Below are positions 3,299 to 61,120 of a stretch of DNA of 64,000 bases, piece after piece. Made by a program: the position numbers and the translations under genes. The stretch spans positions 173,875 through 237,874 of the forward strand of contig JAQVUX010000002.1 in the NCBI GenBank assembly GCA_028699255.1. The letters run 5' to 3'. Each line of letters starts with the position of its first letter. The first letter of the stretch is position 1. The DNA comes from Candidatus Omnitrophota bacterium. Its GTDB lineage: Bacteria; Omnitrophota; Gorgyraeia; 2-01-FULL-45-10. Under the pieces are notes generated by a model. It had not been told where the DNA came from. It worked only from the letters and a program-made list of their open reading frames with translations, and searched no databases.

Positions 3299-4029
3299 AG
3301 ACTATGGAACCCTTTACCCCAATTCAATACATGATCGGCCATACGGAGTTTTGCGGCCTGGATATTATTGTCAATGAAGACGTGCTGATACCGCGTCCGG
3401 AGACCGAGCTTTTAGTCGAGGAAGCGGTAAAGTTAATTTCCGAAAAACATAGCGCTGTGCGGGTACTCGATCTCTGTACCGGATCCGGCAACATAGCGAT
3501 TGGATTGATGGTTCGACTCCGCTCACCATCAATCCCGGGCAAGGCCGCCGAAGGTGGACGCGCTGAGGGATTGACAAAAAGCGTATCCGGTTGTACAATA
3601 GTCGCTTCCGATATTTCCGCCAAGGCGCTTGATGTTGCCCGGATCAATGCCGGGCGGCACGGTGTTTTGCGGGAAATAGAGTTCGTTCAAAGCGATCTAT
3701 TCGATAATATCACCGGAAAATTAGATATCATCGTATCGAATCCGCCTTACATAGCCGGATTCGAATTCGAGACATTGCAGAAAGAGGTTTTGAAAGAGCC
3801 CAGGATAGCTTTAGACGGCGGCGCCGATGGGCTTGATCTTTACCGCAGAATAATTTCCGACGCACCCGGACACATGAACTTGGGCGCGCATATCATTTTT
3901 GAAATAGGTTTCGGCCAGGCCGGCGAAATAAAGAAGATAATAACGTCGGGTGGTTTTGAGGTAATTGAAACGAAAAAAGATTTTAACGATATCGATAGGG
4001 TCATTATCGCCAAATGGATAAGCTCGTAA
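3295..4029 (+). CDS. prmC: release-factor glutamine N5-methyltransferase (HemK/PrmC)
   Basis: SAM motif VLDLCTGSGNIA and NPPY motif; ATGA start/stop overlap with prfA. Contains an ~25-aa insertion (encoded around 3505-3580) relative to canonical PrmC. Confidence 0.8.
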   Translation: MKTMEPFTPIQYMIGHTEFCGLDIIVNEDVLIPRPETELLVEEAVKLISEKHSAVRVLDLCTGSGNIAIGLMVRLRSPSIPGKAAEGGRAEGLTKSVSGCTIVASDISAKALDVARINAGRHGVLREIEFVQSDLFDNITGKLDIIVSNPPYIAGFEFETLQKEVLKEPRIALDGGADGLDLYRRIISDAPGHMNLGAHIIFEIGFGQAGEIKKIITSGGFEVIETKKDFNDIDRVIIAKWISS

Positions 4030-9079: not shown

Positions 9080-9674
9080 AAAGCCGCTACGTGATTATCT
9101 GGATGACCTTGCGGCCAGGCGCCCCGCGCCGGGCGGCGGAAGCGCGGCCGCGCTTTCCGCGGCGATAGGAGCCGCTCTTATTTCTATGGTAGCGAACTAT
9201 ACGGTGGGTAACCCGAAATATAAATCGGATGAGGATAAAGTAGCCGTTATTCTGAAGAAGGCTGAGGCGTATCGTACCCGGCTTCTGGCGCTGGTCGATG
9301 AAGACGTGTCCGCGTATGAAAAATTATGCGACGGAATAAAAAATTCACCCAAAGGTTCTCAGGCCCCGGACGGGCTTTATAAGGATGCGATCACCCCGCC
9401 GCTAGAGATGTGCAGGATATCCGCGGAAGCGCTCGGGATATGTAAGGAAATTGCGGAATGCGGGAACAGGAATTTGATAACAGATACCGCGATAGCCGCG
9501 ATACTTCTCGAAGGAGCATTTTTTTCCGCGAAGTTTAACGTGTACATAAATTTGAAATATATAAAAGACATTGATTTTATCGGCAATATCCACAAAGAGC
9601 TTTCGCCTCTGGAAAAGTCTCTGCCGGAATTAAAAGAAGAGATATTGGAAATGTGTGAGGAAGTTATAAAATAG
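9069..9674 (+). CDS. fchA: methenyltetrahydrofolate cyclohydrolase (cyclodeaminase-domain protein)
   Basis: LRDYLDDLAARRPAPGGGSAAALSAAIGAAL is the FchA/cyclodeaminase signature. Start at ATG 9069 (MYNKKP) overlaps the fhs stop by 11 nt. Confidence 0.75.
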   Translation: MYNKKPLRDYLDDLAARRPAPGGGSAAALSAAIGAALISMVANYTVGNPKYKSDEDKVAVILKKAEAYRTRLLALVDEDVSAYEKLCDGIKNSPKGSQAPDGLYKDAITPPLEMCRISAEALGICKEIAECGNRNLITDTAIAAILLEGAFFSAKFNVYINLKYIKDIDFIGNIHKELSPLEKSLPELKEEILEMCEEVIK

Positions 9675-11442: not shown

Positions 11443-13647
11443 ATGTCGAAAGCATCGGAGATAACTATAAAAACAGTAGCGGGATTGATGGTCTCAGGCG
11501 CGAAAAAGGTCATTGCGCAGGCCGATGCGTTATTGGGCAGGGCAAAAAAAGAAAAAGGCCCCGCGCAGGCGGTCGCATTTCCGGAAACAGCATTCTATCT
11601 CCCGTTGGCTAACGCGCTTCTCGGGCTCGAAACGAAGACGGTAGCCGATGCTGAAAAGATACTGTCTGCGGCTAAGACGCTTGTTATAAAGGACGTGCCT
11701 TCCGAAGACGCATGGGGCACATTCCTTAAAGATTCGCTCAATGCAGGTGTGGCGGCCATACTTTGCGAGGAACTCATCTCGGCTTTGAAATACGTTTACG
11801 GCCAGGAGCCGCAAAAAGACTGCCCGGGGTTCTTCCCGGACACGATACTGCGTTCGCTCGGGATACAATTAGTCGACGGAAGGATATCCGGCATCGCGGT
11901 CATCCTGGGCCGCGCGCCGGACTCGGCGATCGCCGTTAGCATAGTGCGCGACCTGCAGAAACGTAACATACTGACACTCTTGGGCGGTAATGTCGATGGT
12001 GTCAGCATTATAGACCAGTTGAAAGAAGGCGGCCTTCAGATGGGGCTCGACAGTTATGTGGTGCCTTACGGCCGCGACACATTGTCGATCGTCTACGTCC
12101 TCAACTTCGCGATAAGGGCGGCGCTCTCATTCGGCGGCATCAAGGCGGGCAACGCGAAAGCGTGCGTCGATTACGTCAGAGACAGGGTGCCGGCGTTCGT
12201 CATGCTTTTGGGCGGAGTCGATGAGGTGAAGGCGGCGACGGGCGCGGGCGCCATCGCGGCGGGAGTGCCGATCATAACCGATCTCGATCTTCCCGAAGTG
12301 CGTGTTCCGGGAGTGTGCGCTCACGAAGAGTGCCTTGTTAAAGAGAAGGATTATAAAAAAATAGTCCAGAGGGCCGTAGAGGTGCGCGGCATAAAAGTAA
12401 AAGTCGCGCAGATCCCCATACCGGTACCGTTCTCGGCCGCTTTTGAGGGCGAGCGCGTCCGGAAAGAGAATATGTTCGCGCAATTCGGCGCGAAGTATTC
12501 GCCCGCCTTCGAATACCTGCGGATGAAAAAAACCTCCGAGGTCGAAGACGGTAAAGTTACGGTCATAGGCCCCGAGATCGACCGGATGCAGGAAGGTTCA
12601 AATTATCCGCTGGCGCTGGTGATCGACGTTACGGGCAGGAAGATGTCGGTTGATTACGAGCCTATACTCGAACGGCAGATACACAAATTTCTAAATTACG
12701 CCATGGGCGTATTTCATATGGGCCAGCGCGACATGAACTGGATCCGCATATCAAAGGACGCAAAGAAGGCCGGTTTCAAGATGCACCATCTGGGTGATAT
12801 CTTAGTGGCCAAGCTCCACGACGAATACGGTGCCATAGTCGATAAAGCCCAGGTTACGATATATACTGACGAGAAGGAAGTGATGGCGCTTCTGCCGGAG
12901 GCCAGGCGGGCTTTTGTGGCCAGGGACGAACGGCTCGCGGGAATGACGGATGAGTCGGTCGATACATTCTACAGCTGTACGCTTTGCCAGAGTTTCGCGC
13001 CGGATCACGTCTGCGTTGTGAGTCCCGAGCGGCTCGGACTGTGCGGCGCATATTCATGGCTCGACGCGAAGGCCGCCCACGAAATTACGCCGACCGGCGG
13101 CAACCAGCCGATAAAGAAGGGTAATGCGATCGACGCGGCGAAAGGTTTCTGGAAAGGCGTGAATGATTTTGTGTTTACCGCTTCTCATCAGCATACCTCG
13201 CAGATGGCGGCGTATTCGATCATGGATTCGCCCATGACCTCGTGCGGCTGTTTCGAGTGTATCGTGGCGATAGTCCCGGAAGCCAACGGTGTCATGATCG
13301 TAAACAGGGAGTACGCGGGCGAGACGCCGGTGGGGATGAAGTTTACGACGCTTGCCGGGACGGTGGGCGGCGGCAACCAGACCCCGGGGTTCCTGGGTGT
13401 GGGCAGATTATACGTGGCCAGCAGGAAGTTCATCTCGGCCGAGGGCGGGTTAAAACGGGTCGTGTGGATGCCGAAAGAGCTCAAAGAGGTACTTAGCGAT
13501 AAATTGAAGGCGCGCTGTAAAGAACTCGGGTCCCCGGAGCTGTTTGACAAGATCGCTGATGAGACGATCGCGACCGATTCCGCCGCGCTGGTCGAATATC
13601 TGCAGAAAGTCGGTCATCCGGCGCTGGCGATGGATCCGCTGATGTAA
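11443..13647 (+). CDS. acsB: CO-methylating acetyl-CoA synthase subunit (A-cluster subunit, AcsB/CdhC type)
   Basis: 734 aa; the A-cluster ligand motif CGCFEC and cysteines in FYSCTLCQSFAPDHVCVVSPERLGLCGAYSWLDAKAAHEI; size matches bacterial AcsB. Confidence 0.85.
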   Translation: MSKASEITIKTVAGLMVSGAKKVIAQADALLGRAKKEKGPAQAVAFPETAFYLPLANALLGLETKTVADAEKILSAAKTLVIKDVPSEDAWGTFLKDSLNAGVAAILCEELISALKYVYGQEPQKDCPGFFPDTILRSLGIQLVDGRISGIAVILGRAPDSAIAVSIVRDLQKRNILTLLGGNVDGVSIIDQLKEGGLQMGLDSYVVPYGRDTLSIVYVLNFAIRAALSFGGIKAGNAKACVDYVRDRVPAFVMLLGGVDEVKAATGAGAIAAGVPIITDLDLPEVRVPGVCAHEECLVKEKDYKKIVQRAVEVRGIKVKVAQIPIPVPFSAAFEGERVRKENMFAQFGAKYSPAFEYLRMKKTSEVEDGKVTVIGPEIDRMQEGSNYPLALVIDVTGRKMSVDYEPILERQIHKFLNYAMGVFHMGQRDMNWIRISKDAKKAGFKMHHLGDILVAKLHDEYGAIVDKAQVTIYTDEKEVMALLPEARRAFVARDERLAGMTDESVDTFYSCTLCQSFAPDHVCVVSPERLGLCGAYSWLDAKAAHEITPTGGNQPIKKGNAIDAAKGFWKGVNDFVFTASHQHTSQMAAYSIMDSPMTSCGCFECIVAIVPEANGVMIVNREYAGETPVGMKFTTLAGTVGGGNQTPGFLGVGRLYVASRKFISAEGGLKRVVWMPKELKEVLSDKLKARCKELGSPELFDKIADETIATDSAALVEYLQKVGHPALAMDPLM

Positions 13648-13739
13648 AGCGAGATAACCTCGTAGATTGGTCATCTATTTTTCATGAGATAACCTCCGAG
13701 GTCGATGGGCTGATATACATTGGTTCTTAATCTAAATTT

Positions 13740-13900
13740 TTCGTCCTGGAAGGAAGACCCTTTCAGGATTCATGCCTCGCGTGGACGCGAAAATTTTGAC
13801 CATGCAAAATTTTCGCTCGAGAAAAATTGCTCGGACGTTGCCTCGCAATTTTTACGCCCCGCTCGGCACGAATCCCTGCGGGTCTTCCTCCGACAGGAAG
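13740..13900. repeat. structured palindromic repeat, copy A (~160 nt). The same family occurs in inverted orientation at 60826-60990.
   Basis: Terminal IR GGAAGACCC (13753) / GGGTCTTCC (13879); internal hairpin GCGAAAATTTT-gaccatgc-AAAATTTTCGC (13785-13814). About 85-90% identity to the reverse complement of 60826-60990 by manual alignment. Confidence 0.75.
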
Positions 13901-13923
13901 CGAAAAATTTACCGGAGGTAGTG

Positions 13924-14118
13924 ATGAAGAAACTATATTTGTCGGACACGAATAAGAAGATCGGCGGGGTATGCGGAGGGCTCGGAGAATATTTCGATCT
14001 CGACCCGACGCTCATCAGAGTGATCTTTATACTGATCGCCCTTTTGTCGTTCGGCCTCGGCGTTATAGGGTATATCCTCATATGGATGATTATCCCGCGC
14101 AAGCCTAAGGGTGTATAA
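13924..14118 (+). CDS. PspC-domain small membrane protein
   Basis: 64 aa, MKKLYLSDTNKKIGGVCGGLGEYFDLDPTLIRVIF followed by one TM helix, which is the PspC domain pattern. The start is placed at ATG 13924 inside the longer ORF 13720-14118, which otherwise runs through the repeat. Confidence 0.65.
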   Translation: MKKLYLSDTNKKIGGVCGGLGEYFDLDPTLIRVIFILIALLSFGLGVIGYILIWMIIPRKPKGV

Positions 14119-14148
14119 AATTAATTTGAAAAGGAGTAGGCGGTTAAA

Positions 14149-14505
14149 ATGAACAAGGTTATTATTACAACGGCGATGCTGGTTTGCAGTAATATATTTA
14201 TGACGTTTGCGTGGTACGGCCATCTGAAAAATTACAATGATAAACCGTGGATCGTTGCGGCCATTATAAGCTGGGGCATCGCGCTCTTTGAATATCTTTT
14301 ACAGGTTCCGGCGAACAGGATAGGCCATCAGGTGATGAATCTGGGACAGCTGAAGATACTCCAGGAGGTAATAACCCTATCCATCTTTGTACCCTTCTCG
14401 ATACTTTATATGAAAGAAGGGTTTAAAAAAGATTATATATGGGCGGCGATTTTTATCGTCGCGGCTGTGTTTTTTATGTTTCGCGGAATATTAACAAAGA
14501 GCTAA
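14149..14505 (+). CDS. small multi-pass membrane protein (DMT-like / DUF486-type)
   Basis: 118 aa with four predicted TM helices; no catalytic motifs. Confidence 0.5.
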   Translation: MNKVIITTAMLVCSNIFMTFAWYGHLKNYNDKPWIVAAIISWGIALFEYLLQVPANRIGHQVMNLGQLKILQEVITLSIFVPFSILYMKEGFKKDYIWAAIFIVAAVFFMFRGILTKS

Positions 14506-14508
14506 AAA

Positions 14509-15528
14509 ATGAAAACGATAAAAATATTTATGACGGCAATTTTTGCAGGGATTATTATTTCGACGGCCTGTCCGGGTTTTTGCGGTGAGCCGGTAATCTC
14601 GATGCAGATCGATAACGAGATAATGCCGGATACGCGTAACGCGATTCGCGATATAAATAACACTCTCTTTGAAAGCATGAAGAGCAACAAGCCTGCCGTT
14701 ATGATGGAGATGTTCGTCGACGAGGGGAAGGCCGATAAAGCTCTCGAGGAGAACGTAAAAGCGGCATACGATAAGATGGGTGAGCTCGCGAAAGGTACCG
14801 GGTTTGATATGCTGCATGAATACCTCATTGACGTGAAAGGCTCGGGGACGGTTACGGTTACCTTGCCGGGCGCGGACGGCGAAAATTTTCTTATGAATGT
14901 CGACGCCGGCAAAGGGCCTTTGTACATGTCATTCCTTATCTCTAAGAGTAATTTTAAAGATCTTGCGCTCTGTTTCGTTTATATGAAAAAGGCAGACGCG
15001 TGGCGCCTGCACACTTTCCATCTCGGCACGTACCGCGTGGGAGGCAAAACGCCGGTTCAATGGTACGCGGAGGCCAGGGAGATGTATGAGAACGGCTGGG
15101 ATGTGCCGGCGATGCAACGGATGCAGCTTATCGATACGTTTATGCGCCCCGCGCCATTCCTCCAATATGAAAAAGAGCCGCAGATGCGGGATTTTTTCGC
15201 CGCGGGCGCGGCAGAGACATCCCGAAAGTATAAATTTCCTGTGAAGGCGACCTGGGTTAAGGATATGCCCGCTATATACGGCCTGGATATTCAATTTACC
15301 AATGGTAAACTCATACCGGTTGTTATCTACGTGACCCAGCATCCGCTCAATAGGGCCGTGCCGATACAGGACGAAGCGGATGCGATAACGCAAAAGATCG
15401 AAAAGATAATTCCCGGCATTACGCGCGGCACGGAATCCGTAGGATACAGGGTTTTTACCGAGCCGCCTACCGATAGCGCGAAACAGTATAAATATAGAGC
15501 CGTAATCAGCAAAGTTGGGATCGCATAA
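14509..15528 (+). CDS. hypothetical secreted protein / lipoprotein
   Basis: 339 aa; N-terminal signal MKTIKIFMTAIFAGIIISTAC (possible lipobox); no recognisable domain. Confidence 0.5.
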   Translation: MKTIKIFMTAIFAGIIISTACPGFCGEPVISMQIDNEIMPDTRNAIRDINNTLFESMKSNKPAVMMEMFVDEGKADKALEENVKAAYDKMGELAKGTGFDMLHEYLIDVKGSGTVTVTLPGADGENFLMNVDAGKGPLYMSFLISKSNFKDLALCFVYMKKADAWRLHTFHLGTYRVGGKTPVQWYAEAREMYENGWDVPAMQRMQLIDTFMRPAPFLQYEKEPQMRDFFAAGAAETSRKYKFPVKATWVKDMPAIYGLDIQFTNGKLIPVVIYVTQHPLNRAVPIQDEADAITQKIEKIIPGITRGTESVGYRVFTEPPTDSAKQYKYRAVISKVGIA

Positions 15529-15540
15529 GGAGAAGAGCGG

Positions 15541-21213: not shown

Positions 21214-21804
21214 ATGAGACAATGGATGGGATTGACGATAATTGCGATCGTGGCTGTAGCAATGATGGCTACGCTTGCGGGCACGGCTATAGCGTACGAG
21301 GAGCGCTCGTATGAACAGTTGAGCCCGAACGGTAAATACATATTTGTAATGCTCGCAAAATCGCCGGACAAAGAAGGCAGGGTCGATACGCTTAAAGATA
21401 AATATGATCGCTCCGGCCTGTATAAGGCAGGCGAACCGGCAAAGCGCTTTTGGAGCGTGAACTGGTATTCCCCGACCGTGCATATTTCATCGGATGGCGT
21501 TCATTTAGTAAGAATAGGCAGGAAGAGTGTGGTTGCAATAAACGATAAGCCGGATATGGCACAGCTTGCGGTGGCTTTTTACAGTAAAGGCAAGCTTGTG
21601 AAAAAATATACGATCGGCGACCTATGCGGCGATCCTAAAAAACTGGTTCGCGCGCTCGCAGGTTTTCAGTGGCAGAAGCGGATAGCTTTTGACGATGTTT
21701 CTGGGCGGCTCGCGATCAGTCTTGTAACCGGGCAGGATAAAGTGTTTGCCGTGAGATCGGGAAAAATAGTCAAGGCGGACACGCAAAATACGAGGAGACA
21801 ATAA
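21214..21804 (+). CDS. hypothetical secreted protein
   Basis: 196 aa, signal-like N-terminus LTIIAIVAVAMMATLAGTAIA; no known motif. Confidence 0.45.
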   Translation: MRQWMGLTIIAIVAVAMMATLAGTAIAYEERSYEQLSPNGKYIFVMLAKSPDKEGRVDTLKDKYDRSGLYKAGEPAKRFWSVNWYSPTVHISSDGVHLVRIGRKSVVAINDKPDMAQLAVAFYSKGKLVKKYTIGDLCGDPKKLVRALAGFQWQKRIAFDDVSGRLAISLVTGQDKVFAVRSGKIVKADTQNTRRQ

Positions 21805-31548: not shown

Positions 31549-31577
31549 AAATTGCGTATGGATGGAGGCATATAAAC

Positions 31578-31608
31578 AAAAAAGACTCGCTCTTTGCGGG
31601 TCTTTTTC
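31578..31608 (+). terminator. intrinsic terminator-like hairpin (AAAAAGACTCGC-tcttt-GCGGGTCTTTTT), potentially bidirectional
   Basis: An 11-12 bp stem with one mismatch, an A-tract 5' and a T-tract 3'; lies directly after the glycosyltransferase operon and before a 213-nt gap. Confidence 0.5.
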
Positions 31609-31761
31609 GGAGGTGATAGGCCTCAATGGCTTTCGCTATCGTTCCCTCTCGTGTTACAATTATAGTATAACACATAAAATATAAAAAAGCAAGCTCATCC
31701 CCAAATTTTCTAACCCGGGGAGGAATCCTCGGCACAATCGAGGCTCTACGACAGGAAAAAT

Positions 31762-36091: not shown

Positions 36092-36893
36092 CGTCGGTAA
36101 TATCAGAATAGGCGGGCATAATCCATTTGTCTTGATAGCCGGGCCTTGCGTTATTGAGTCGGAGGCCGGAGCTATGCGTCATGCCAGGGCTCTTCGTTCC
36201 CTGACAGGGCGGATGGGCATACCGTTTATATATAAATCGAGTTACGATAAGGCAAACAGAACTTCCGCAGATTCATTTCGCGGCCCGGGTTTCAAAAAAG
36301 GGCTCGCGATACTCAGGAAAGTCAAAGATGAGCTGGGAGTGGCCGTACTCGCGGACGTGCATTGCAAGTCTGAAGTGAAAGAGGCCGCGAAGGTGCTTGA
36401 CATAATACAGATACCGGCGTTTCTTTCGCGCCAGACGGATCTTTTAAAGATGGCCGCGGAGACCGGCAAGGTAGTAAATATAAAGAAGGGGCAATTTCTT
36501 GCGCCCTGGGACATGAAGAACGTTATTAAAAAAATAGAGTCCGCCGGCAATAAGAATATCCTTCTTACCGAGCGCGGCGTAAGTTTCGGTTACAATAATC
36601 TGGTTAGCGATTTCCGCTCGATATTGATAATGAAAGGTTTCGGCTATCCTGTTATTTACGACGCGACGCATTCGGTACAGATGCCCGGCGGCCTGGGCGA
36701 CAAGTCCGGCGGAGAGAGGGCGTACGTGCCATATCTTTCGTCGGCGGCGATAGCGTGCGGGGCGGATGGTATATTCATGGAGGTTCACGAAGATCCGGAC
36801 AATGCGCCAAGCGACGGGCCGAATATGGTAAGGCTCGACGAGCTTGAAGATATTTTAATGAAATTGAAAAGAATAGCGAAAGCGGTTAAATAG
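36078..36893 (+). CDS. kdsA: 2-dehydro-3-deoxyphosphooctonate aldolase (Kdo8P synthase)
   Basis: 271 aa; [12 protein letters not shown] and DATHSVQ motifs. Confidence 0.9.
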
Positions 36894-54386: not shown

Positions 54387-56104
54387 AATGGACCGAAGCG
54401 TTAATCCCGACACTTAAAGAAGATCCGCAGGACGCGGAAGTTATAAGCCATAAGCTTATGATACGCGGAGGGTTTATCCGCAAACTCAGCGCCGGCGCGT
54501 ATTCGTATCTTCCGCTTGGCGTGAAGACTCTCCATAAGATCGAGGCGATAATAAGAGAAGAGCTGGATAGTGTTGGTTGTCAGGAGGTGCTCCTGCCGGC
54601 CATCCATCCGCCTGAAATATGGAAGAAGACCGGCCGTTACGATGTGCTGGGGCCGGTGCTTATAAAATTCAAAGACCGCCACGGCAAGGAGTGCGTTCTC
54701 GGGCCGACCCACGAGGAGATAATAACAGACCTTGTAGCCAATAATCTCAAATCATATAAAGAACTTCCGTTCACACTCTATCAGATACAGACGAAGTTTC
54801 GCGATGAGCCCAGGCCGCGCTTCGGCATTATGCGCACCTCCGAGTTTATAATGAAGGACGCCTATAGCTTTGATTGCGATAGCGATGGGCTCGAGAAGAG
54901 TTACAGGAAGATGTACGATGCCTACTGCCGGATATTCGAGCGTTGCGGATTGCCGTATGTGGCGGTAGAGGCCGACCCCGGCATAATGGGCGGCAACGAT
55001 TCGAATGAATTCATGGTGCCGACCCCGGCGGGTGAGGACAGGATCGTCGTTTGCACTAAATGCAAATACTCCGCGAGCACAGAAGTTGCCAAGTGCGAAG
55101 GGGGTCCGGCGTTCGGTAAGGCCCAGGCGGCTAAAGAGAAGAAACTGCCGATAGCCGAAGTGGAGACGCCGGGGATAACGACGATCGAGGGGGTTTCCGA
55201 ACTTTTAAAGACAGAGCCGACGCGGTTGGTCAAGACGCTGATATATAAATGCGACGACAAAATAGTTGCGGTTCTTTTGCGCGGTGATTTCGAGGCCAAC
55301 GAAGCGAAGATAAAAAATTACCTGAAATGCGTCTCGCTTGAACTCGCCGATGCCAAAACGATAGAAGATGTAACGCTCGCGCCCGTCGGGTTTTCCGGCC
55401 CGGTGAAATTGCGCCTCGCGCGCATAATTGCCGATAACAGCGTCAAGGGCATGGTTAATTCTATTACCGGCGCCAATAAGAAGGACGCGCATCTTATAAA
55501 CGTAAACATAGACCGTGATTTTGAGACGAAAGAGTTTGCAGATTTACGGATGATAACGGCTGTAGACGGATGTCCGGCGTGCGGCAAGCCGATAGAGATA
55601 AAGCAGGCTATAGAGATAGGCCACACGTTCAAGCTCGGCACTAAATATTCGGAAGCGCTCCAGGCGAAGTTCCTCGATAAGGACGGTAAAGAGAATATCG
55701 CCATAATGGGCTGTTACGGCATAGGTGTGAACAGGATAATGGCCAGTCTTATTGAAACCTCGAACGATAAGGACGGGATAATATGGCCGGAGTCCATCGC
55801 TCCGTACAAAATTATAATTCTCGCGCTGAATATGGAAGATAAAAAGGTGAAAGAGCTGGCGGATGAATCCTATAAGGCGCTTATAAAATCAGGATTTGAT
55901 GTTTTATACGATGATAGGAATGAATCCGCTGGAGTAAAATTCAAAGACGCTGATCTCATAGGCATACCGATAAAGGTAATAATCGGATCGAAAAACGCCA
56001 AAAATAATATAGTTGAAGTCAAATCCCGCAAGACTGGCAAGATAGATCAGATCCCGCAGAAGGATCTCGTAGCTTTCCTCAAAACCTCTGAATCAACCGC
56101 GTAG
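54383..56104 (+). CDS. proS: proline--tRNA ligase (bacterial type with editing domain)
   Basis: 573 aa with class II aaRS motifs and an INS editing insertion; the stop codon is embedded in the palindrome at 56091-56123. Confidence 0.9.
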   Translation: MKWTEALIPTLKEDPQDAEVISHKLMIRGGFIRKLSAGAYSYLPLGVKTLHKIEAIIREELDSVGCQEVLLPAIHPPEIWKKTGRYDVLGPVLIKFKDRHGKECVLGPTHEEIITDLVANNLKSYKELPFTLYQIQTKFRDEPRPRFGIMRTSEFIMKDAYSFDCDSDGLEKSYRKMYDAYCRIFERCGLPYVAVEADPGIMGGNDSNEFMVPTPAGEDRIVVCTKCKYSASTEVAKCEGGPAFGKAQAAKEKKLPIAEVETPGITTIEGVSELLKTEPTRLVKTLIYKCDDKIVAVLLRGDFEANEAKIKNYLKCVSLELADAKTIEDVTLAPVGFSGPVKLRLARIIADNSVKGMVNSITGANKKDAHLINVNIDRDFETKEFADLRMITAVDGCPACGKPIEIKQAIEIGHTFKLGTKYSEALQAKFLDKDGKENIAIMGCYGIGVNRIMASLIETSNDKDGIIWPESIAPYKIIILALNMEDKKVKELADESYKALIKSGFDVLYDDRNESAGVKFKDADLIGIPIKVIIGSKNAKNNIVEVKSRKTGKIDQIPQKDLVAFLKTSESTA

Positions 56105-56123
56105 GTAACCTACGCGGTTGATT
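56091..56123. repeat. 16-bp perfect inverted repeat AATCAACCGCGTAGGT-a-ACCTACGCGGTTGATT overlapping the proS stop; shares the AACCGCGTAGGT core with the palindrome at 32-87
   Basis: Read directly from the sequence; may act as a terminator/stabiliser hairpin and/or a repeated extragenic palindrome. Confidence 0.6.
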
Positions 56124-56242
56124 GCGCGGTCGAACCTCCGGGTTAAATTAAGGTATAAAAAAGTTATATTTTCCGCTTTGATTTCTTTGGAATATATGTT
56201 ATCGTTTTAACAATATTAAGCGATAAAAAATCCGGAGAATTA

Positions 56243-59200
56243 ATGCATAATATTGGTATTAAGATTATATCGGCAGTTCTTGCCATAGCCTGCCTTCTGA
56301 CGTTTTCCGATGTAGCGCTGTGCTATGATTTTATTCCGGTTAAGGCGCATGATACGTTGGCGCTTGACTCGCAAATTCGCACCGCTGAGTTTTCAGCAAT
56401 ATTCAGTGAATTATACATAGGCCATGCCATTGCCGATGCCTGTAGATTGAACATAACAAGCGAAAACGGCGTAAAAGATCTTATAACTGCTCACCGCTCC
56501 CGCCTTGTCGGCCCAGCCGTTTCTAACCGTATCGGCTCCTTCGACCTTAAAAATCTCCAGGTTCGCCGTGAAGGCGATTCGTACTATTTGACCTACACAA
56601 ACGCATTAGACGGAAATAGAATATCCTGCCGTTATTTCGTACTACCTTCCAACGATTCCGCTTCTAACGCTATCCGCATATGCGACTTCGAATCCTCCTG
56701 CGTGAAGCGGACGGTGTGGATGGAGGTCGCTGGCGCTACTTCGGTCCCGGTAAAAGCAGGGCCTCTCGCCGCGGCTGAGTCGTCCGTTATGGACGCGAAG
56801 ACGCTTAAAGGCGCCGGAGTGATGTTAAAAGATGAAGCGCCGAAACCTAAACCCGCAGGTGCTCGATTGCTGGAATTTGCGAAAAAGCTTGAATCAATAC
56901 ATGCGGAAGTTAAAAAAAGAAGGCGTTTGCGCAAAGGTGAGCATTTCTGGTTAATTAGGGCGCCAAAAATATTGCGCCGGGCCAAACTTATACTTGATAA
57001 AGACGGCCCGGAAGAGGCGTTTGCGCAATTAGTGTATATGTGGAAAGGTTTGAACTCCTTCGCTGAAAAATATAAGGAATATGGACGGTTAACCGGTATC
57101 GAGTTTAATCCGAATGAATATGAAGAGTTTCTTGTGTGGTGGGCAAAAGAGATATACCCGACGAAGCCGGGACTTGCGCTTGCCGTGCATCTACAGCTTG
57201 CAAAATTTTCGCTCGATGCTATACCGCTTGTTCTTTCAATATCAGGTCGGGATAGTGAAATGGATATCGGGATGTGCGCTCTTATAGATAAATATAAAGT
57301 ATTGCTGGAAGAATTTTACGAAGATTCCCTCAGCTTGTCGGAAAGCATAAATGATTCTACCGGTGCGCCGAACCGAATAGCGGATTGGCGCCTTTATCTT
57401 TTAGCAATTCACAAGATCGATAAGATCATTTATAACCTGGGTGAGGTACGGCAAAATATTTTAGATACACCGGAAATACCCAAAAAAGTATCGCAATATT
57501 TTTTGAATGATGACAGCCCTCTATACCGGGCGCAACAACACCTGGTTCATGTTCAACACTATGCCAAAATGCTACAAGCGTCTTCCGGAGAAAATGGCCC
57601 ACAGCCCGACCAGACACGAACGCAGGAGGGTGAGCCGCCGCTACTCGGAGGCGGAACAGGGATTTATGTTATCGAACAGTCGATAGTAAAGGATGCACCT
57701 GAGGTTACGGCAACATTAATACGCGGGAATATCGTGGGCGGGACGATGACGAAGGATGAGGCGGTGCGCCTGCTCGTGAAGATGGCTATTACGGGAAACA
57801 AAGACAAGTGCGCCCGGATAGTTGCAGGTCTTAGTGAATTGGGATACGATATTGTATTCGCATACGAGGAAGCACTTGAGATAGCCATATTATGGCTGGA
57901 TTTTGGAACCGCGGTTGATAAGATGATAAGCTATCTTCGCTTTTACGTAAAAGAAGATGTCCATCCGGAACTTGATAAGCACCGAATGCAGTTGGCGGCG
58001 GGATTTTATGAAGTGCTTGACTTATTTGCCGGACAAAGCAAGGGTGGTATCGGGGAATTTGCGAATTTTTACAAAGTGGCTTCCCCGATACGGGATAGAT
58101 GGATGGCCTATCATAAAACGATCGTTGATTTAGCAGGCTTGCAACTAAGATCTGAAGAAAATGCGAGTCGTTTCCACGACCACTGTTATGAGATCGCCGG
58201 CGCTATATTATCGCCGGATGAAGTGCGTGGAACGTTGGATAGTGTTTTGCAAGACGCCGAATCCCTGATGTCGGTGTATGCCCCGATAATTAGCAACGCA
58301 ATATTAAACGATCATGTTATTCCAGAGGACGGGATAGGAGAAATAAGCGCTTTTATCTGTGATGCGCAAGATTTGATTTACACGACGCGGCAGAGGATCT
58401 CGGTAAGTCTGGCAGGATGCGGCGATTTGGTTATGGATATCGCTGACATGATCTCCGGGTTAAACAATATATATGCGGACAGCATGAATTATTATTTAAA
58501 AAAAATGGGAACGGAGTATCTGGCTTCCCTTGAGGCGGTCCAAAGAAGCGTGATTAAAGAAAAGCTCGTGCGTCTGGGTATTGCCGATATTCCTGGAGAG
58601 CAAGATAATCGCGCCCCCGGTAACGGGCAAACGCCTATCCACCCGCAGACGAAGCGTCCGCCATTCGGGCCGTATCATCATACGCCGGACCCGGGCGACG
58701 ACGATCCTTCGGTCGAAAACCCGTTACCGATTCCGAAACCTGCCGCAAGCTATGCCGGAATAAATGAGGCGCGCGAGGCCACGGCGGCACGGAGATTTGC
58801 CGAAAGTTATCTTGATGGCAGGCAGGTGCCTGTAGATTTTCCGCTAACAGATGATATCGTATCGCCAGGCCTTGGTGAGAGAGTGAAAAAAATAAGAAAA
58901 GCGTTTGGCGTATCGAAAATAGATTTTGCAGTAATGTTTGGTGTAACGCAAGGAGCAATAGATAGATGGGGGAAAGGCGGTACGCTTCCCAAATCATATA
59001 ATATGATAGCCGCCTTTGCTGAAAAATATGGGATACCGATGAAGTATCTTCTTAAAGGTGAGGGCGAAGAAGAGGCATTGGAGTCGGCTAATAAGCATAA
59101 AGAAGAGTTTCGCCGCGGGGTACTACCGCAAGCACCTGCAAAAAAGCTACCGCGGGTTGACATGGCAAAACAGGAAAAGGCGGCGCAACGCTTTGCGGCT

Positions 59201-60751
59201 ATTAGAGCGAACGAAGCGGCAGTCTTCGCGATTTTGAGCGAGGTGCCGGTAGATGTTATGGAGTGGGCGTTACCGCGGGCTAATATAGTCTCGTGCGCGT
59301 TTGCCAGGCGGTATAAAGAAAATGATAGATTGGTATATTGGTCGTATGCAATAGAAGGTTTTGCGCGAGCGTATCGTGCTTATGTCCTTAAAGGATGCGA
59401 TGGTGGGAAACTGGATCCCCGTAGCGCGCGTTTTAAGAAAATAGCCGATGCCGCGATGAGAAACGCTATTGCTGATTCTGCAAGATGTAAGACTGGTCGA
59501 GGCCGATTCTTGAAGAGCGGAGTCTTTCTGTTTTCAGAAGCGTTTACCGGCAAGGATGCTTATGATGATAAAAGTTTTCGATCGGAAAATATCCTGGGCA
59601 AATCGGAATTGCCCGCGGATAAGTTTGATGAATCCGGCGTGCCTGAAGAGATACTCAGCATGCTACGCCGGGATGGTTTACCGGCGCTTATCCAGTCCGT
59701 TGATACGCTTACGTCGGGTGAGAGATTTGTCCTGGCAAGATTTATTAAAAACGATGAAGCAACATTAGAAAAAATTGCGCGGGAGATGAAGTGTGGCAAA
59801 TCGTCAGTATTCAGAATATATAAAAGCGCTATCAATAAAATACAGGATTATGTTATGAAGAAGAACGCGCAAGCGCACTCAAAGATTGCCGCGCAACGCA
59901 AGGCTGTGGCGGAAGGCGTGGGCAAAGGCGACGCCGCCCCTCGACAGGCTCGGGACGGCGTCCTGAGTACGACAAAGAACGCCGTGGCGGCAATCCCGCC
60001 AAGCGGAATCAGCGAAGCTGAGGGGAAGGATGAAAAAGGGGTAGGGGGGAGAGAAAAGGGGGCAACTGTGGAAATAAAAGAGCGGGTTCTTTCCGATGAG
60101 CGGAACGCAACGAATGACGAAAGACGAAAGACGAACGACGAAATCACGATCGCCGTAGCCGATCTAATCGATACCGTCAAGGTCAGCGCTTACGGTATGA
60201 AGATGGGGGGGAGGGTGCAGAATGAGTGCCAGAATATAATGATCGCGCTGGAAGTCCCGGATGACGCGAAAGAGAACCCGATGCTCTTCGGTTCAGCCTT
60301 GCGGCAGGTTACGGACCGGCTAGAGCGGCAAGGCATCTTAGGCAACGGCAAGACCGTCAAAGTTAAGGTTGTCTGGGCGAAGTCGAGCGAATTATGTTCT
60401 ACCATTTTAAGTGAGAATTCCGATTTTGGCGCTCCGGTATCAAATATAGTCGTATTGGGCAAGGAAGCGACATTCAACGGAGAAGAGTTTGCGCCTCTTA
60501 AAGGCAAGGCATTCTTTGCCTGCATCGATTTCACGGGCCGGCCGGATTATGCCAGAATATTGACGCTTGCGATGAAGCTTGCCTTCAACCTCGATTCTAC
60601 TGGTAATCCTATCGTAAACTATGGCGATATCGAGATCCTCTGGATAGCTGATAAGGTCGCGAGATTACTGCCGAAGTCAGGAGCGATAGAGACAGGCAAG
60701 AAGGACGATCGGTTTAGGTTAGAGGTGCGCGAGCTCAAGCGTCAGGCGTAA
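56243..60751 (+). CDS. large orphan protein (1502 aa) with an N-terminal signal-peptide/anchor-like segment, an XRE-type HTH (about aa 877-940) and a sigma-70 region-4-like HTH (about aa 1156-1205)
   Basis: A single uninterrupted ORF with a GGAGA RBS 5 nt upstream of the ATG and AT-rich upstream DNA. HTH_XRE-like: SKIDFAVMFGVTQGAIDRWGKGGTLPKSYNMIAAFAEKYGIPMKYLLKGEG. Region-4-like: LTSGERFVLARFIKNDEATLEKIAREMKCGKSSVFRIYKSAINKI. No enzymatic motifs recognised. Confidence 0.6.
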   Translation: MHNIGIKIISAVLAIACLLTFSDVALCYDFIPVKAHDTLALDSQIRTAEFSAIFSELYIGHAIADACRLNITSENGVKDLITAHRSRLVGPAVSNRIGSFDLKNLQVRREGDSYYLTYTNALDGNRISCRYFVLPSNDSASNAIRICDFESSCVKRTVWMEVAGATSVPVKAGPLAAAESSVMDAKTLKGAGVMLKDEAPKPKPAGARLLEFAKKLESIHAEVKKRRRLRKGEHFWLIRAPKILRRAKLILDKDGPEEAFAQLVYMWKGLNSFAEKYKEYGRLTGIEFNPNEYEEFLVWWAKEIYPTKPGLALAVHLQLAKFSLDAIPLVLSISGRDSEMDIGMCALIDKYKVLLEEFYEDSLSLSESINDSTGAPNRIADWRLYLLAIHKIDKIIYNLGEVRQNILDTPEIPKKVSQYFLNDDSPLYRAQQHLVHVQHYAKMLQASSGENGPQPDQTRTQEGEPPLLGGGTGIYVIEQSIVKDAPEVTATLIRGNIVGGTMTKDEAVRLLVKMAITGNKDKCARIVAGLSELGYDIVFAYEEALEIAILWLDFGTAVDKMISYLRFYVKEDVHPELDKHRMQLAAGFYEVLDLFAGQSKGGIGEFANFYKVASPIRDRWMAYHKTIVDLAGLQLRSEENASRFHDHCYEIAGAILSPDEVRGTLDSVLQDAESLMSVYAPIISNAILNDHVIPEDGIGEISAFICDAQDLIYTTRQRISVSLAGCGDLVMDIADMISGLNNIYADSMNYYLKKMGTEYLASLEAVQRSVIKEKLVRLGIADIPGEQDNRAPGNGQTPIHPQTKRPPFGPYHHTPDPGDDDPSVENPLPIPKPAASYAGINEAREATAARRFAESYLDGRQVPVDFPLTDDIVSPGLGERVKKIRKAFGVSKIDFAVMFGVTQGAIDRWGKGGTLPKSYNMIAAFAEKYGIPMKYLLKGEGEEEALESANKHKEEFRRGVLPQAPAKKLPRVDMAKQEKAAQRFAAIRANEAAVFAILSEVPVDVMEWALPRANIVSCAFARRYKENDRLVYWSYAIEGFARAYRAYVLKGCDGGKLDPRSARFKKIADAAMRNAIADSARCKTGRGRFLKSGVFLFSEAFTGKDAYDDKSFRSENILGKSELPADKFDESGVPEEILSMLRRDGLPALIQSVDTLTSGERFVLARFIKNDEATLEKIAREMKCGKSSVFRIYKSAINKIQDYVMKKNAQAHSKIAAQRKAVAEGVGKGDAAPRQARDGVLSTTKNAVAAIPPSGISEAEGKDEKGVGGREKGATVEIKERVLSDERNATNDERRKTNDEITIAVADLIDTVKVSAYGMKMGGRVQNECQNIMIALEVPDDAKENPMLFGSALRQVTDRLERQGILGNGKTVKVKVVWAKSSELCSTILSENSDFGAPVSNIVVLGKEATFNGEEFAPLKGKAFFACIDFTGRPDYARILTLAMKLAFNLDSTGNPIVNYGDIEILWIADKVARLLPKSGAIETGKKDDRFRLEVRELKRQA

Positions 60752-60825
60752 TTCCACCCCCTGGGGTGAAAACAGTAGAAATTTATCATATATTTTACCT
60801 GCTGAGTGAGGAAGTTTTTCATTTT

Positions 60826-60990
60826 CCTCATGAGGAAGGCCCGCAGGGATTCGTGCCGAGCGGGGCGTAAAAGTTCGAGCAGATGCGAGAACTTTTCTCG
60901 CAGTGAAATTTTACATGGCTAAAATTTCGCGTCCCGTGAGGCACAATCCCGAAAGGGCCTTCCTCTCGGGCATGAAAAATTTCCGAACGA
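60826..60990. repeat. structured palindromic repeat, copy B (inverted relative to copy A at 13740-13900)
   Basis: Terminal IR GAGGAAGGCCC (60833) / GGGCCTTCCTC (60957); the reverse complement aligns with 13740-13900 at about 85-90% identity, including the GCGAAA(A)TTTT...AAAATTT(T)CGC internal hairpin. Confidence 0.75.
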
Positions 60991-61027: not shown

Positions 61028-61055
61028 TATTTATACTTTCTTTTAAGGAGGGAAA

Positions 61056-61086
61056 GTGGGTTTATTGAATTGAACCCGCTTTTTTT
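61056..61086 (+). terminator. intrinsic terminator/attenuator hairpin in the rimP leader (GUGGGUU-uauugaauug-AACCCGC followed by U7)
   Basis: A 7-bp GC-rich stem (one G-U pair) followed by TTTTTTT, ~30 nt downstream of the predicted -10 and 35 nt upstream of the rimP ATG. Confidence 0.5.
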
Positions 61087-61120
61087 ATTGTCTTTTTAAG
61101 CACACATACTATGGATATAT

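Follow-up and report, generated by a model that had tools for sequence, protein, structure and literature searches.

A low-copy palindromic intergenic repeat family in Candidatus Omnitrophota, probably mobile or once mobile

The 64,000-nucleotide stretch of Candidatus Omnitrophota DNA considered here (positions 173,875 to 237,874 of contig JAQVUX010000002.1, assembly GCA_028699255.1; hereafter the window) carries all 59 of its long open reading frames (ORFs) on the + strand, with very short spacers and a positive GC skew throughout, and its gene content covers the Wood-Ljungdahl pathway, lipopolysaccharide (LPS) core and Kdo synthesis, Lpt, trigger factor, ClpP, proS and rimP-nusA. Two of the few long spacers are filled by related hairpin-forming sequences, copies A and B, which are best explained as members of a low-copy, non-coding, palindromic intergenic repeat family specific to a clade of Candidatus Omnitrophota. 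Copy A starts 85 nt past the stop codon of acsB and ends 12 nt ahead of the pspC ATG, and copy B starts 58 nt past the stop codon of a 1502-aa ORF and ends 14 nt ahead of the -35 box of the rimP promoter, positions that agree with a preliminary description of this DNA in which both copies were placed 3' of a long gene. The coordinates of the elements, their parts and the adjoining genes are collected in Table 1.

The A/B pair is the longest inverted repeat pair that a repeat finder returns for the window, and a global alignment of A with reverse-complemented B, over the extents first assigned to them in the preliminary description, gives 132 matches, 17 mismatches and 28 gap columns. The identity of 85-90% originally claimed therefore holds for aligned bases (88.6%), but not when indels are counted (74.6% of all columns). 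The longest exact run in common is a 33-mer, TTTTACGCCCCGCTCGGCACGAATCCCTGCGGG, and the 29-nt core has exactly two exact matches in the window, with none expected from 100 shuffles; alignment, common run and repeat finder thus establish two related stretches in opposite orientation, as had been proposed. The terminal inverted repeats quoted earlier (GGAAGACCC/GGGTCTTCC and GGAAGGCCC/GGGCCTTCC) are both present, and a further outer repeat, (T/G)AAATTTTTCG...CGAAAAATTT(A), widens the elements to the limits listed in Table 1.

Table 1. Elements, element parts and adjoining genes in the 64-kb window (coordinates count from the first nucleotide of the window).
Feature	Coordinates	Strand	Remarks
Copy A, whole element	13733..13911	+	179 nt; 'forward' orientation; subtype in common with L010
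Copy B, whole element	60810..60984	-	175 nt; reversed relative to flanking + strand genes; subtype in common with L001, L003 and L016
29-nt block ACGCCCCGCTCGGCACGAATCCCTGCGGG, copy A	13854..13882	+	Same in A and B; 3' arms of P3-P2 plus start of P1
29-nt invariant block, copy B	60840..60868	-	Located by exact-match search
P0 outer AT-rich arm TAAATTTTTCGT	13733..13744	+	Pairs with 13900-13911 GCGAAAAATTTA; ends resemble terminal inverted repeats
P1 5' arm AGGAAGACCC	13751..13760	+	Pairs with 13880-13889 GGGTCTTCCT
P2-P3 5' arms CAGGATTCATGCC..GCGTGG	13764..13784	+	Pair with 13857-13878
P4 tip hairpin GCGAAAATTTTG-ACCATG-CAAAATTTTCGC	13787..13816	+	Conserved CCATG loop
P5 tip hairpin AAAAATTGC...GCAATTTTT	13822..13853	+	Helix 6
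acsB (acetyl-CoA synthase beta subunit)	11443..13647	+	Pfam ACS_CODH_B_C, CdhC, CODH_A_N; upstream of copy A
pspC-domain gene	13924..14118	+	Pfam PspC; 12 nt past copy A
1502-aa ORF	56243..60751	+	Weak HTH_19 match; upstream of copy B
rimP-nusA-infB promoter TTGACA-17-TATAAA	60999..61027	+	Read from sequence; conserved in relatives with and without the element

The copies are built alike: AT-rich inverted-repeat ends (AAAATTTTTCG / CGAAAAATTTT) flank a long imperfect palindrome, which runs from the outer stem P0 through a variable linker and the stems P1-P2-P3 to a three-way junction bearing the hairpins P4 and P5, so that each copy takes the shape of a Y. For RNA, the folding energies of A and B in both senses span -74 to -89.6 kcal/mol (z -6.9 to -10.4 against shuffles); the forward strand of A accounts for -74 to -79.8 kcal/mol and its reverse strand for -89.6. 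Folded as DNA, A reaches -50.2 kcal/mol (z -8.7) and B -48.6 kcal/mol (z -8.3). As had been expected, A and B fold into long imperfect stem-loops, on all four strands as RNA and likewise as DNA; the internal AT-rich hairpin that had been predicted is also present, except that there are two per copy and not one.

The family extends into related genomes. With a 20-mer of the invariant block as query, a scan of genomes located three copies on three contigs of the Omnitrophota metagenome-assembled genome (MAG) STD1_87 (L001, L003 and L005), a two-block pattern scan of metagenomes added L010 in metagenome Ga0172381, and a search of syntenic loci, fetched through NusA, AcsB and Mfd homologues, by hidden Markov model (HMM) and covariance model contributed L016, L023 and L024, for a total of seven further copies or variants in related Omnitrophota genomes. 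A sister-strain locus, L022, holds the orthologue of copy A on a contig that ends within the hairpin, and HMM and covariance model identify a remnant of copy B in L015. Covariance-model scores are 153 bits for copy A, which is alignable with six other copies, and 192.6 bits for copy B. Across the family, element length is about 172-186 nt and G+C content 0.48-0.53, the same as that of the genome. Comparison of the P2-P5 core resolves subtypes that cut across genomes, with identities of 92% for A and L010, 94% for B and L016 and 92% for B and L001, against only 74% for A and B themselves.

The genes on either side of the copies have no common functional theme: the pairs are acsB/pspC, HTH-ORF/rimP, ftsW/radical SAM, mfd/small ORF, mfd/rimP, argG/argH (L010), PvlArgDC/hypF-like and pterin-binding/DRTGG. 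At independent loci the element is forward five times and reverse twice. Within about 270 kb of clade DNA that had not been picked for carrying the element, the covariance model found four copies and one remnant, by extrapolation a few tens per genome at most. Density is roughly one copy per 30-70 kb of surveyed DNA.

Searches beyond these loci were negative. The covariance model, run with filters off, found no third copy in the window, and none in a further 97 kb from relatives that included 22 kb of the window's own genome; phage and plasmid collections contained no match by blastn in distant mode; and among viral contigs the core 18-mer gave one chance match, the P5 pattern none, and a loose P4 pattern 105 stretches of which none was family-like by nhmmer. 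Rfam returned no match for the window at gathering thresholds, and a relaxed search of the element produced merely two chance-level snoRNA matches with E above 1. A literature search on inverted repeats of Omnitrophota found no relevant paper, and the family appears to be previously undescribed and the first to be described for this phylum. Several candidate members were discarded: four genome-scan matches, in Nocardia, Mycobacterium, Frankiaceae and Thermoanaerobaculia, and those at the metagenome loci L008, L009, L011 and L012 are chance occurrences of a short pattern in coding-like, GC-rich DNA; the best other covariance match in the window, at 31561-31628 (E 0.0097), is an ordinary terminator hairpin; and a weak nhmmer match at 36540-36588 lies within coding sequence.

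The palindrome evidently breaks assemblies, since short-read (Logan) contigs end inside the P4/P5 hairpins of both copies. L014, from the same organism as the window, begins at position 1 in the P4 loop of copy B, and the sister-strain contig L022 stops at position 12108 inside copy A. The Logan assembly of SRR22315503 contains the window's sequence.

Occupancy of orthologous sites varies among relatives. Upstream of rimP, the proS stop codon lies directly against the conserved rimP promoter in L018, L019 and L021, where the element is absent; the window has the large ORF and copy B in reverse orientation; L016 has mfd and a forward copy at the same spot; and the sister strain L015 (98% identity in NusA) has lost all of copy B but its last ~40-65 nt. 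After mfd, L003 and L016 each carry a forward copy, the first bases of which provide the mfd stop codon, and the site is empty in the window's own genome (L132), where the next gene abuts mfd (mfd/rotamase); the spacers of L134 and L136 are short and contain no copy by covariance model, and in L133, where the contig ends ~100 nt downstream, the short visible stretch is likewise without one. After acsB, acsC starts 10 nt on in L023 and L024, where the window instead has copy A and three extra genes, and after the pterin-binding gene a copy is present in L023 and L024, L025 having an empty 2-nt spacer to DRTGG. The element is thus missing at four orthologous junctions in relatives. Directly past the mfd stop codon of L133, at 11870-11895, there is a perfect palindrome, GGATAGTAAAAT/ATTTTACTATCC, with a centre like joined element ends (TAAAAT...ATTTTA), which could be an empty target site, a footprint or a coincidence.

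Inserted copies also decay and recombine, by deletion, by exchange of arms between subtypes and by secondary insertion. L024 is a chimera that joins the left arm of the A/B family to the right arm of L023, so that its P1-P3 cannot form, and gene-order breakpoints fall at the element, the order being mfd, element, rimP in L016 as against proS next to rimP, and mfd, element and another gene, in STD1_87. Within P2 of L016, at 9199-9273, lies a nested insertion of 75 nt with inverted ends of ~22 bp (CCAAAATTTGACAGAGCAAA...) and a flanking 5-bp TTGTG duplication; it is a second family of the miniature inverted-repeat transposable element (MITE) type in these genomes, with a clear target duplication.

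Pairing is conserved across the copies. In an alignment fitted by covariance model and checked for staying in register, 93.7% of cells are standard pairs and 19 of the 61 pairs show changes on both sides, compared with 7.8±1.8 in shuffles, of which none in 500 reaches 19; registers shifted by 1-3 columns contain only 1-5 such pairs. The compensatory changes sought in the preliminary description are present, and they lie in P0, P1, P4 and P5. P0 (helix 1) has double changes at 5 of its 11 pairs, with 89.6% of cells paired, and its ends are still conserved in the arm-swapped variant L023; P1 (helix 2) has 6 of 11 pairs altered on both sides, its sequence differing among copies while the pairing stays; and P4 (helix 4), which is present in every variant including L023 and L024, likewise has 6 of 11. 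P5 is 100% paired and has two such pairs, with TTGC/GCAA, GTTC/GAAC and TTTC/GAAA among the copies. P2-P3 (helix 3) hardly varies, 13 of its 16 pairs being invariant, an invariance due in part to the way in which copies were found. L023, which was found independently of the arm patterns, has wholly different arms that are still complementary, and it keeps P0, P4 and P5.

A rival explanation is a structured non-coding RNA, either a cis-acting mRNA element or a small RNA gene, in which the three-way junction would be functional and would have been copied and selected as RNA. The folds are strong and statistically unusual, pairs are compensated in P0, P1, P4 and P5, and the orthologous post-mfd copies show conservation well in excess of neutral expectation. 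Five of the seven independent loci point in the direction of the upstream gene, four of these starting 0-7 nt from its stop codon, and an element so placed would be co-transcribed with that gene. The reverse strand folds better (-89.6 versus -74 kcal/mol for A) and has 11 G.U-type pairs against 5 on the forward strand, yet this imbalance is small and its counts are non-independent, too weak to name a functional strand, and at most loci the strand that folds better runs antisense to the genes beside it. Against an RNA gene there is further the occurrence of the element in both orientations relative to co-directional neighbours, with A and B opposed within one window; the lack of a theme among flanking genes; its absence from four orthologous sites and the truncation of B in a sister strain at 98% identity; the wholesale swapping of arms in L023 and their mismatch in L024, where P1-P3 is impossible; and the want of a promoter, a terminator and an Rfam family. 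An RNA function as the reason for the family is, on this balance, unlikely.

Scans of copies A and B revealed no promoter-like site in or at the element; a TTGACC in the P4 loop, considered as a promoter, has no acceptable -10 box by eye. No conserved ORF is present, as judged from 1-nt indels between subtypes, no six-frame comparison having been run, and indels in other copies interrupt the 49-codon ORF at 13772-13921.

A primary role as a bidirectional transcription terminator or 3'-end stabiliser after long genes would account for the position of the copies downstream of gene ends, often abutting the stop codon, and for a very stable hairpin on both strands. The terminator scan is nevertheless empty at the element, with no T-run past the stem of A or B on either strand, and the same window has ordinary terminators with a GC stem and a T-run elsewhere, at ~31580-31610 and 61049-61086. 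Termination would moreover silence the next gene at L010, which lies inside argG-argH, and at copy A, 12 nt before the ribosome-binding region of pspC, and relatives manage without the element at the same junctions. This role is very unlikely, although mRNA stabilisation is possible as a side effect of a co-transcribed element. The earlier suggestion of a small structured RNA doubling as a bidirectional terminator consequently finds no support, there being no T-run, promoter, Rfam match or clear strand preference, and it is opposed as well by the near-deletion of B in the sister strain with 98% identical NusA.

Also to be weighed is a double-stranded DNA site for a protein, whether nucleoid-associated, regulatory or a site-specific recombinase, with the palindrome reflecting dimeric binding and the A/T tracts providing bending or UP-element activity. 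A block of 29-33 nt is invariant beyond the needs of pairing, GCGAAAATTT-like motifs recur at the ends and in P4/P5, B, L003 and L016 each have an element end immediately ahead of a -35 box, TTGACA/TTGAAC (the A/T-rich end of copy B being just upstream of the rimP promoter), and gene-order breakpoints coincide with the element (L016 versus STD1_87). P1, P4 and P5, however, change sequence and stay complementary, unlike a fixed recognition sequence; L023 replaces the 'invariant' arms entirely; copy A has no adjacent promoter and stands 12 nt from the pspC start; the invariance is inflated by the way copies were found; and no candidate protein was identified. A protein site as the basis of the family is accordingly quite improbable.

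The element is probably a non-autonomous mobile or once-mobile palindromic repeat of the MITE, REPIN (an inverted doublet of REP sequences) or ERIC type. This reading accounts better than an RNA gene, a terminator or a fixed protein site for dispersal between unrelated genes in two orientations, for four empty orthologous junctions, and for truncation, arm exchange, nested insertion and inverted-repeat ends. The preliminary description had offered a REP/MITE-like extragenic element as one of two possibilities, and dispersal, both orientations, unrelated neighbours, empty sites, a remnant, a chimera and a nested insertion sustain that view. In keeping with MITEs, the element is shorter than 500 bp without coding capacity, has terminal inverted repeats within 4-30 bp and occurs as dispersed copies with insertion polymorphism. 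It had also been stated that no transposase is nearby, and the window bears this out, nearly all of its genes having been placed in housekeeping families, directly or via syntenic loci, and none being a transposase.

Copies would, according to this mobile-repeat explanation, be made or moved by an enzyme acting in trans and encoded elsewhere, which probably recognises the ends or the folded hairpin, and only hairpin-competent lineages would go on leaving descendants, a form of descent that would explain both the pairing kept by double changes and the subtypes common to several species. Once inserted, a copy could affect its neighbours: a transcript reading through from the upstream gene would contain a hairpin of -75 to -90 kcal/mol, and at three loci the outward A/T tracts occupy the UP-element position of an adjacent promoter and may influence it.

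Several observations weigh against this mobile-repeat explanation. The post-mfd copies of L003 and L016 are 86% identical, the fourfold sites of the adjacent mfd being only 52.5% identical (n=240) and the Mfd proteins 85-86% identical, and where the P1 stems of L003 and L016 differ, the changes are compensated; this conservation exceeds what the decay of simple selfish DNA predicts and has the appearance of concerted evolution or of purifying selection. Purifying selection would be one possible cause, gene conversion between copies and independent recent insertion at the same stop codon two others. The ends of nine copies show no consistent flanking direct repeat; a TA may be hidden in the palindromic TAAA...TTTA ends, but B, L001 and L005 lack it on the left. 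Neither a full-length element nor a transposase with matching ends turned up, the 64-kb window containing none, and ~380 kb of Pfam-labelled related loci, like the window, contain no Y1/RAYT gene. Copy number is low for a REP/REPIN-type family, below the tens to hundreds per genome that characterise REPINs. The evidence from pairing must itself be discounted to some degree, the alignment having been fitted to the structure by the covariance model, and six copies having been found via P2/P3-arm patterns, so that the near-invariance of P2-P3 is partly an artefact of ascertainment.

The same conservation after mfd, 86% beside 52.5% at fourfold sites with stem differences compensated, is the ground for supposing that the element is instead a module retained by the host, namely a three-way junction of ~140 nt, formed by RNA or by single-stranded DNA, one arm of which purifying selection would keep invariant in sequence across Omnitrophota species. 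Such a module would represent a new class, whether of cis-acting RNA or of protein-binding platform, or else would resemble a REPIN in being a vertically inherited 'symbiont' with a cognate enzyme of its own. To our knowledge, no REPIN-like system with a cognate enzyme has been described in Omnitrophota, and retention of this kind is doubtful.

Among known systems, prokaryotic MITEs are, according to PMC10969869, elements of <500 bp with terminal inverted repeats of 4-30 bp that lie in intergenic DNA and give stable stem-loop transcripts, and their flanking direct repeats fade with age. The Omnitrophota element resembles MITEs as portrayed in PMC10969869 and PMC2229807 in being short, non-coding, intergenic, dispersed and present or absent between relatives, in its inverted-repeat ends of 10-13 bp and in its stable stem-loop. 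It differs in having no demonstrable target-site duplication and no known parent insertion sequence or transposase, in an interior that is a conserved three-way junction and not a degraded transposase remnant, and in a G+C content (0.48-0.53) like that of the genome and not AT-rich.

REPINs, described in PMC3116915, PMC3337134 and bioRxiv 10.1101/2021.07.10.451892 as inverted REP doublets mobilised by RAYT tyrosine transposases, offer the closest analogy for a hairpin unit with maintained pairing and vertical persistence (PMC3116915). As in the REPINs of those accounts, the whole unit is one long hairpin, as single-stranded DNA or mRNA, extragenic and with arm pairing maintained, and its persistence at orthologous sites together with cross-species subtypes resembles the vertical, long-lived inheritance of REPIN-RAYT systems. 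The element is, however, about twice the usual length, with a branched tip and arms that are not recognisable as REP palindromes of 20-40 nt; its copy number is far lower (about one per 30-70 kb); no RAYT gene was identified in the window or the ~380 kb of related loci; and the element ends, judged by eye, show no consistent GTAG or CGTC tag (PMC3733652). No sequence relationship to ERIC or to the CREE of Neisseria was seen, or would be expected of elements from another phylum.

The ERIC/IRU elements of enterobacteria are imperfect palindromes of 100-160 bp that lie between or after genes in either orientation and are co-transcribed as hairpins. CREE are like the Omnitrophota element in the same respects, as imperfect 100-160 bp palindromes between or after genes, in either orientation and with co-transcribed hairpins, and their ends can form promoters with flanking DNA, to be compared with the A/T-rich element ends upstream of -35 boxes at B, L003 and L016; the features on record for CREE alone are a TA duplication together with an IHF site and processing by RNase III (PMC2649163). 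The modular build of the present family, with its ends, P4 and P5 as modules and with interchangeable arms (L023, L024), recalls that of mosaic repeats. The BIMEs of E. coli are mosaic in the same manner. The BOX elements of pneumococcus are a further instance, forming tandem modular arrays where the Omnitrophota element is one long palindrome (PMC3049150), and the modules of BOX and BIME are different and unrelated in sequence.

Other palindromes accompany the family. Beside the copy in L005, at 3704-3901 on the - strand, stands a distant cousin palindrome with ends GAGAAAATTTTCAC/GTGAAAATTTTCTC and inner stem GGGTGGTGCC/GGCACCACCC, and an unrelated intergenic palindrome, GAGGCCACGGGGGTC...GACCCCCTGGCCTC, adjoins the family copy of L024 at 21648-21787. 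The window has a second, unrelated palindromic repeat built on AACCGCGTAGGT/ACCTACGCGGTT, at 21-87 on its left edge and at 56084-56130, where it straddles the 3' end of proS. Several families of hairpin repeats seem to coexist in these genomes.

The surroundings of both copies differ from those in relatives. The 85-nt spacer ahead of copy A holds a direct repeat, GAGATAACCTC, and the block 13648-15540, which consists of the spacer, copy A, the pspC-domain gene, a DUF486/DMT_6 gene and a 339-aa ORF without a Pfam match (genes to 15528), splits an acsB-acsC junction that is intact in L023 and L024; L025 has two other ORFs there, of 233 and 335 aa. Compared with L018, L019 and L021, which lack it, the giant ORF upstream of copy B is an insertion separating proS from rimP, and its length varies between close strains, from 1502 aa in the window to 2166 aa in L015 (2832-9332; NusA 98% identical). 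Two apparent - strand ORFs at ~62.8-63.9 kb overlap the expected infB region and are probably not genes.

The rimP promoter was missed by a simple promoter scan because its second hexamer ends in A. Between it and the rimP start codon, at 61028-61120, the window has a conserved hairpin (61049-61086) followed by a T-run, with counterparts in L016 (9440-9500), L018 (9450-9510) and L021 (9450-9510); the hairpin is preceded by AAGGAGG and a tiny GTG-started ORF, and resembles a terminator or attenuator in the leader of the rimP-nusA-infB operon. NusA autoregulation is known in other bacteria, and the rimP leader is possibly such a case.

Hardly any of the non-coding DNA of the uncultured Omnitrophota has been explored. 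Contig breaks in short-read assemblies find an explanation in the family, which also marks gene-order breakpoints such as the changing neighbours of rimP and mfd, and could serve as a strain-level marker; the element may in addition influence neighbouring genes, through a very stable hairpin in read-through transcripts and through A/T tracts upstream of promoters. For now, what is unusual is the host, the element being of an ordinary kind; if its conservation across species reflects selection and not recent spread, the family would offer a tractable case, within a reduced genome, of a replicator that is long-lived or of a structured element that has been exapted.

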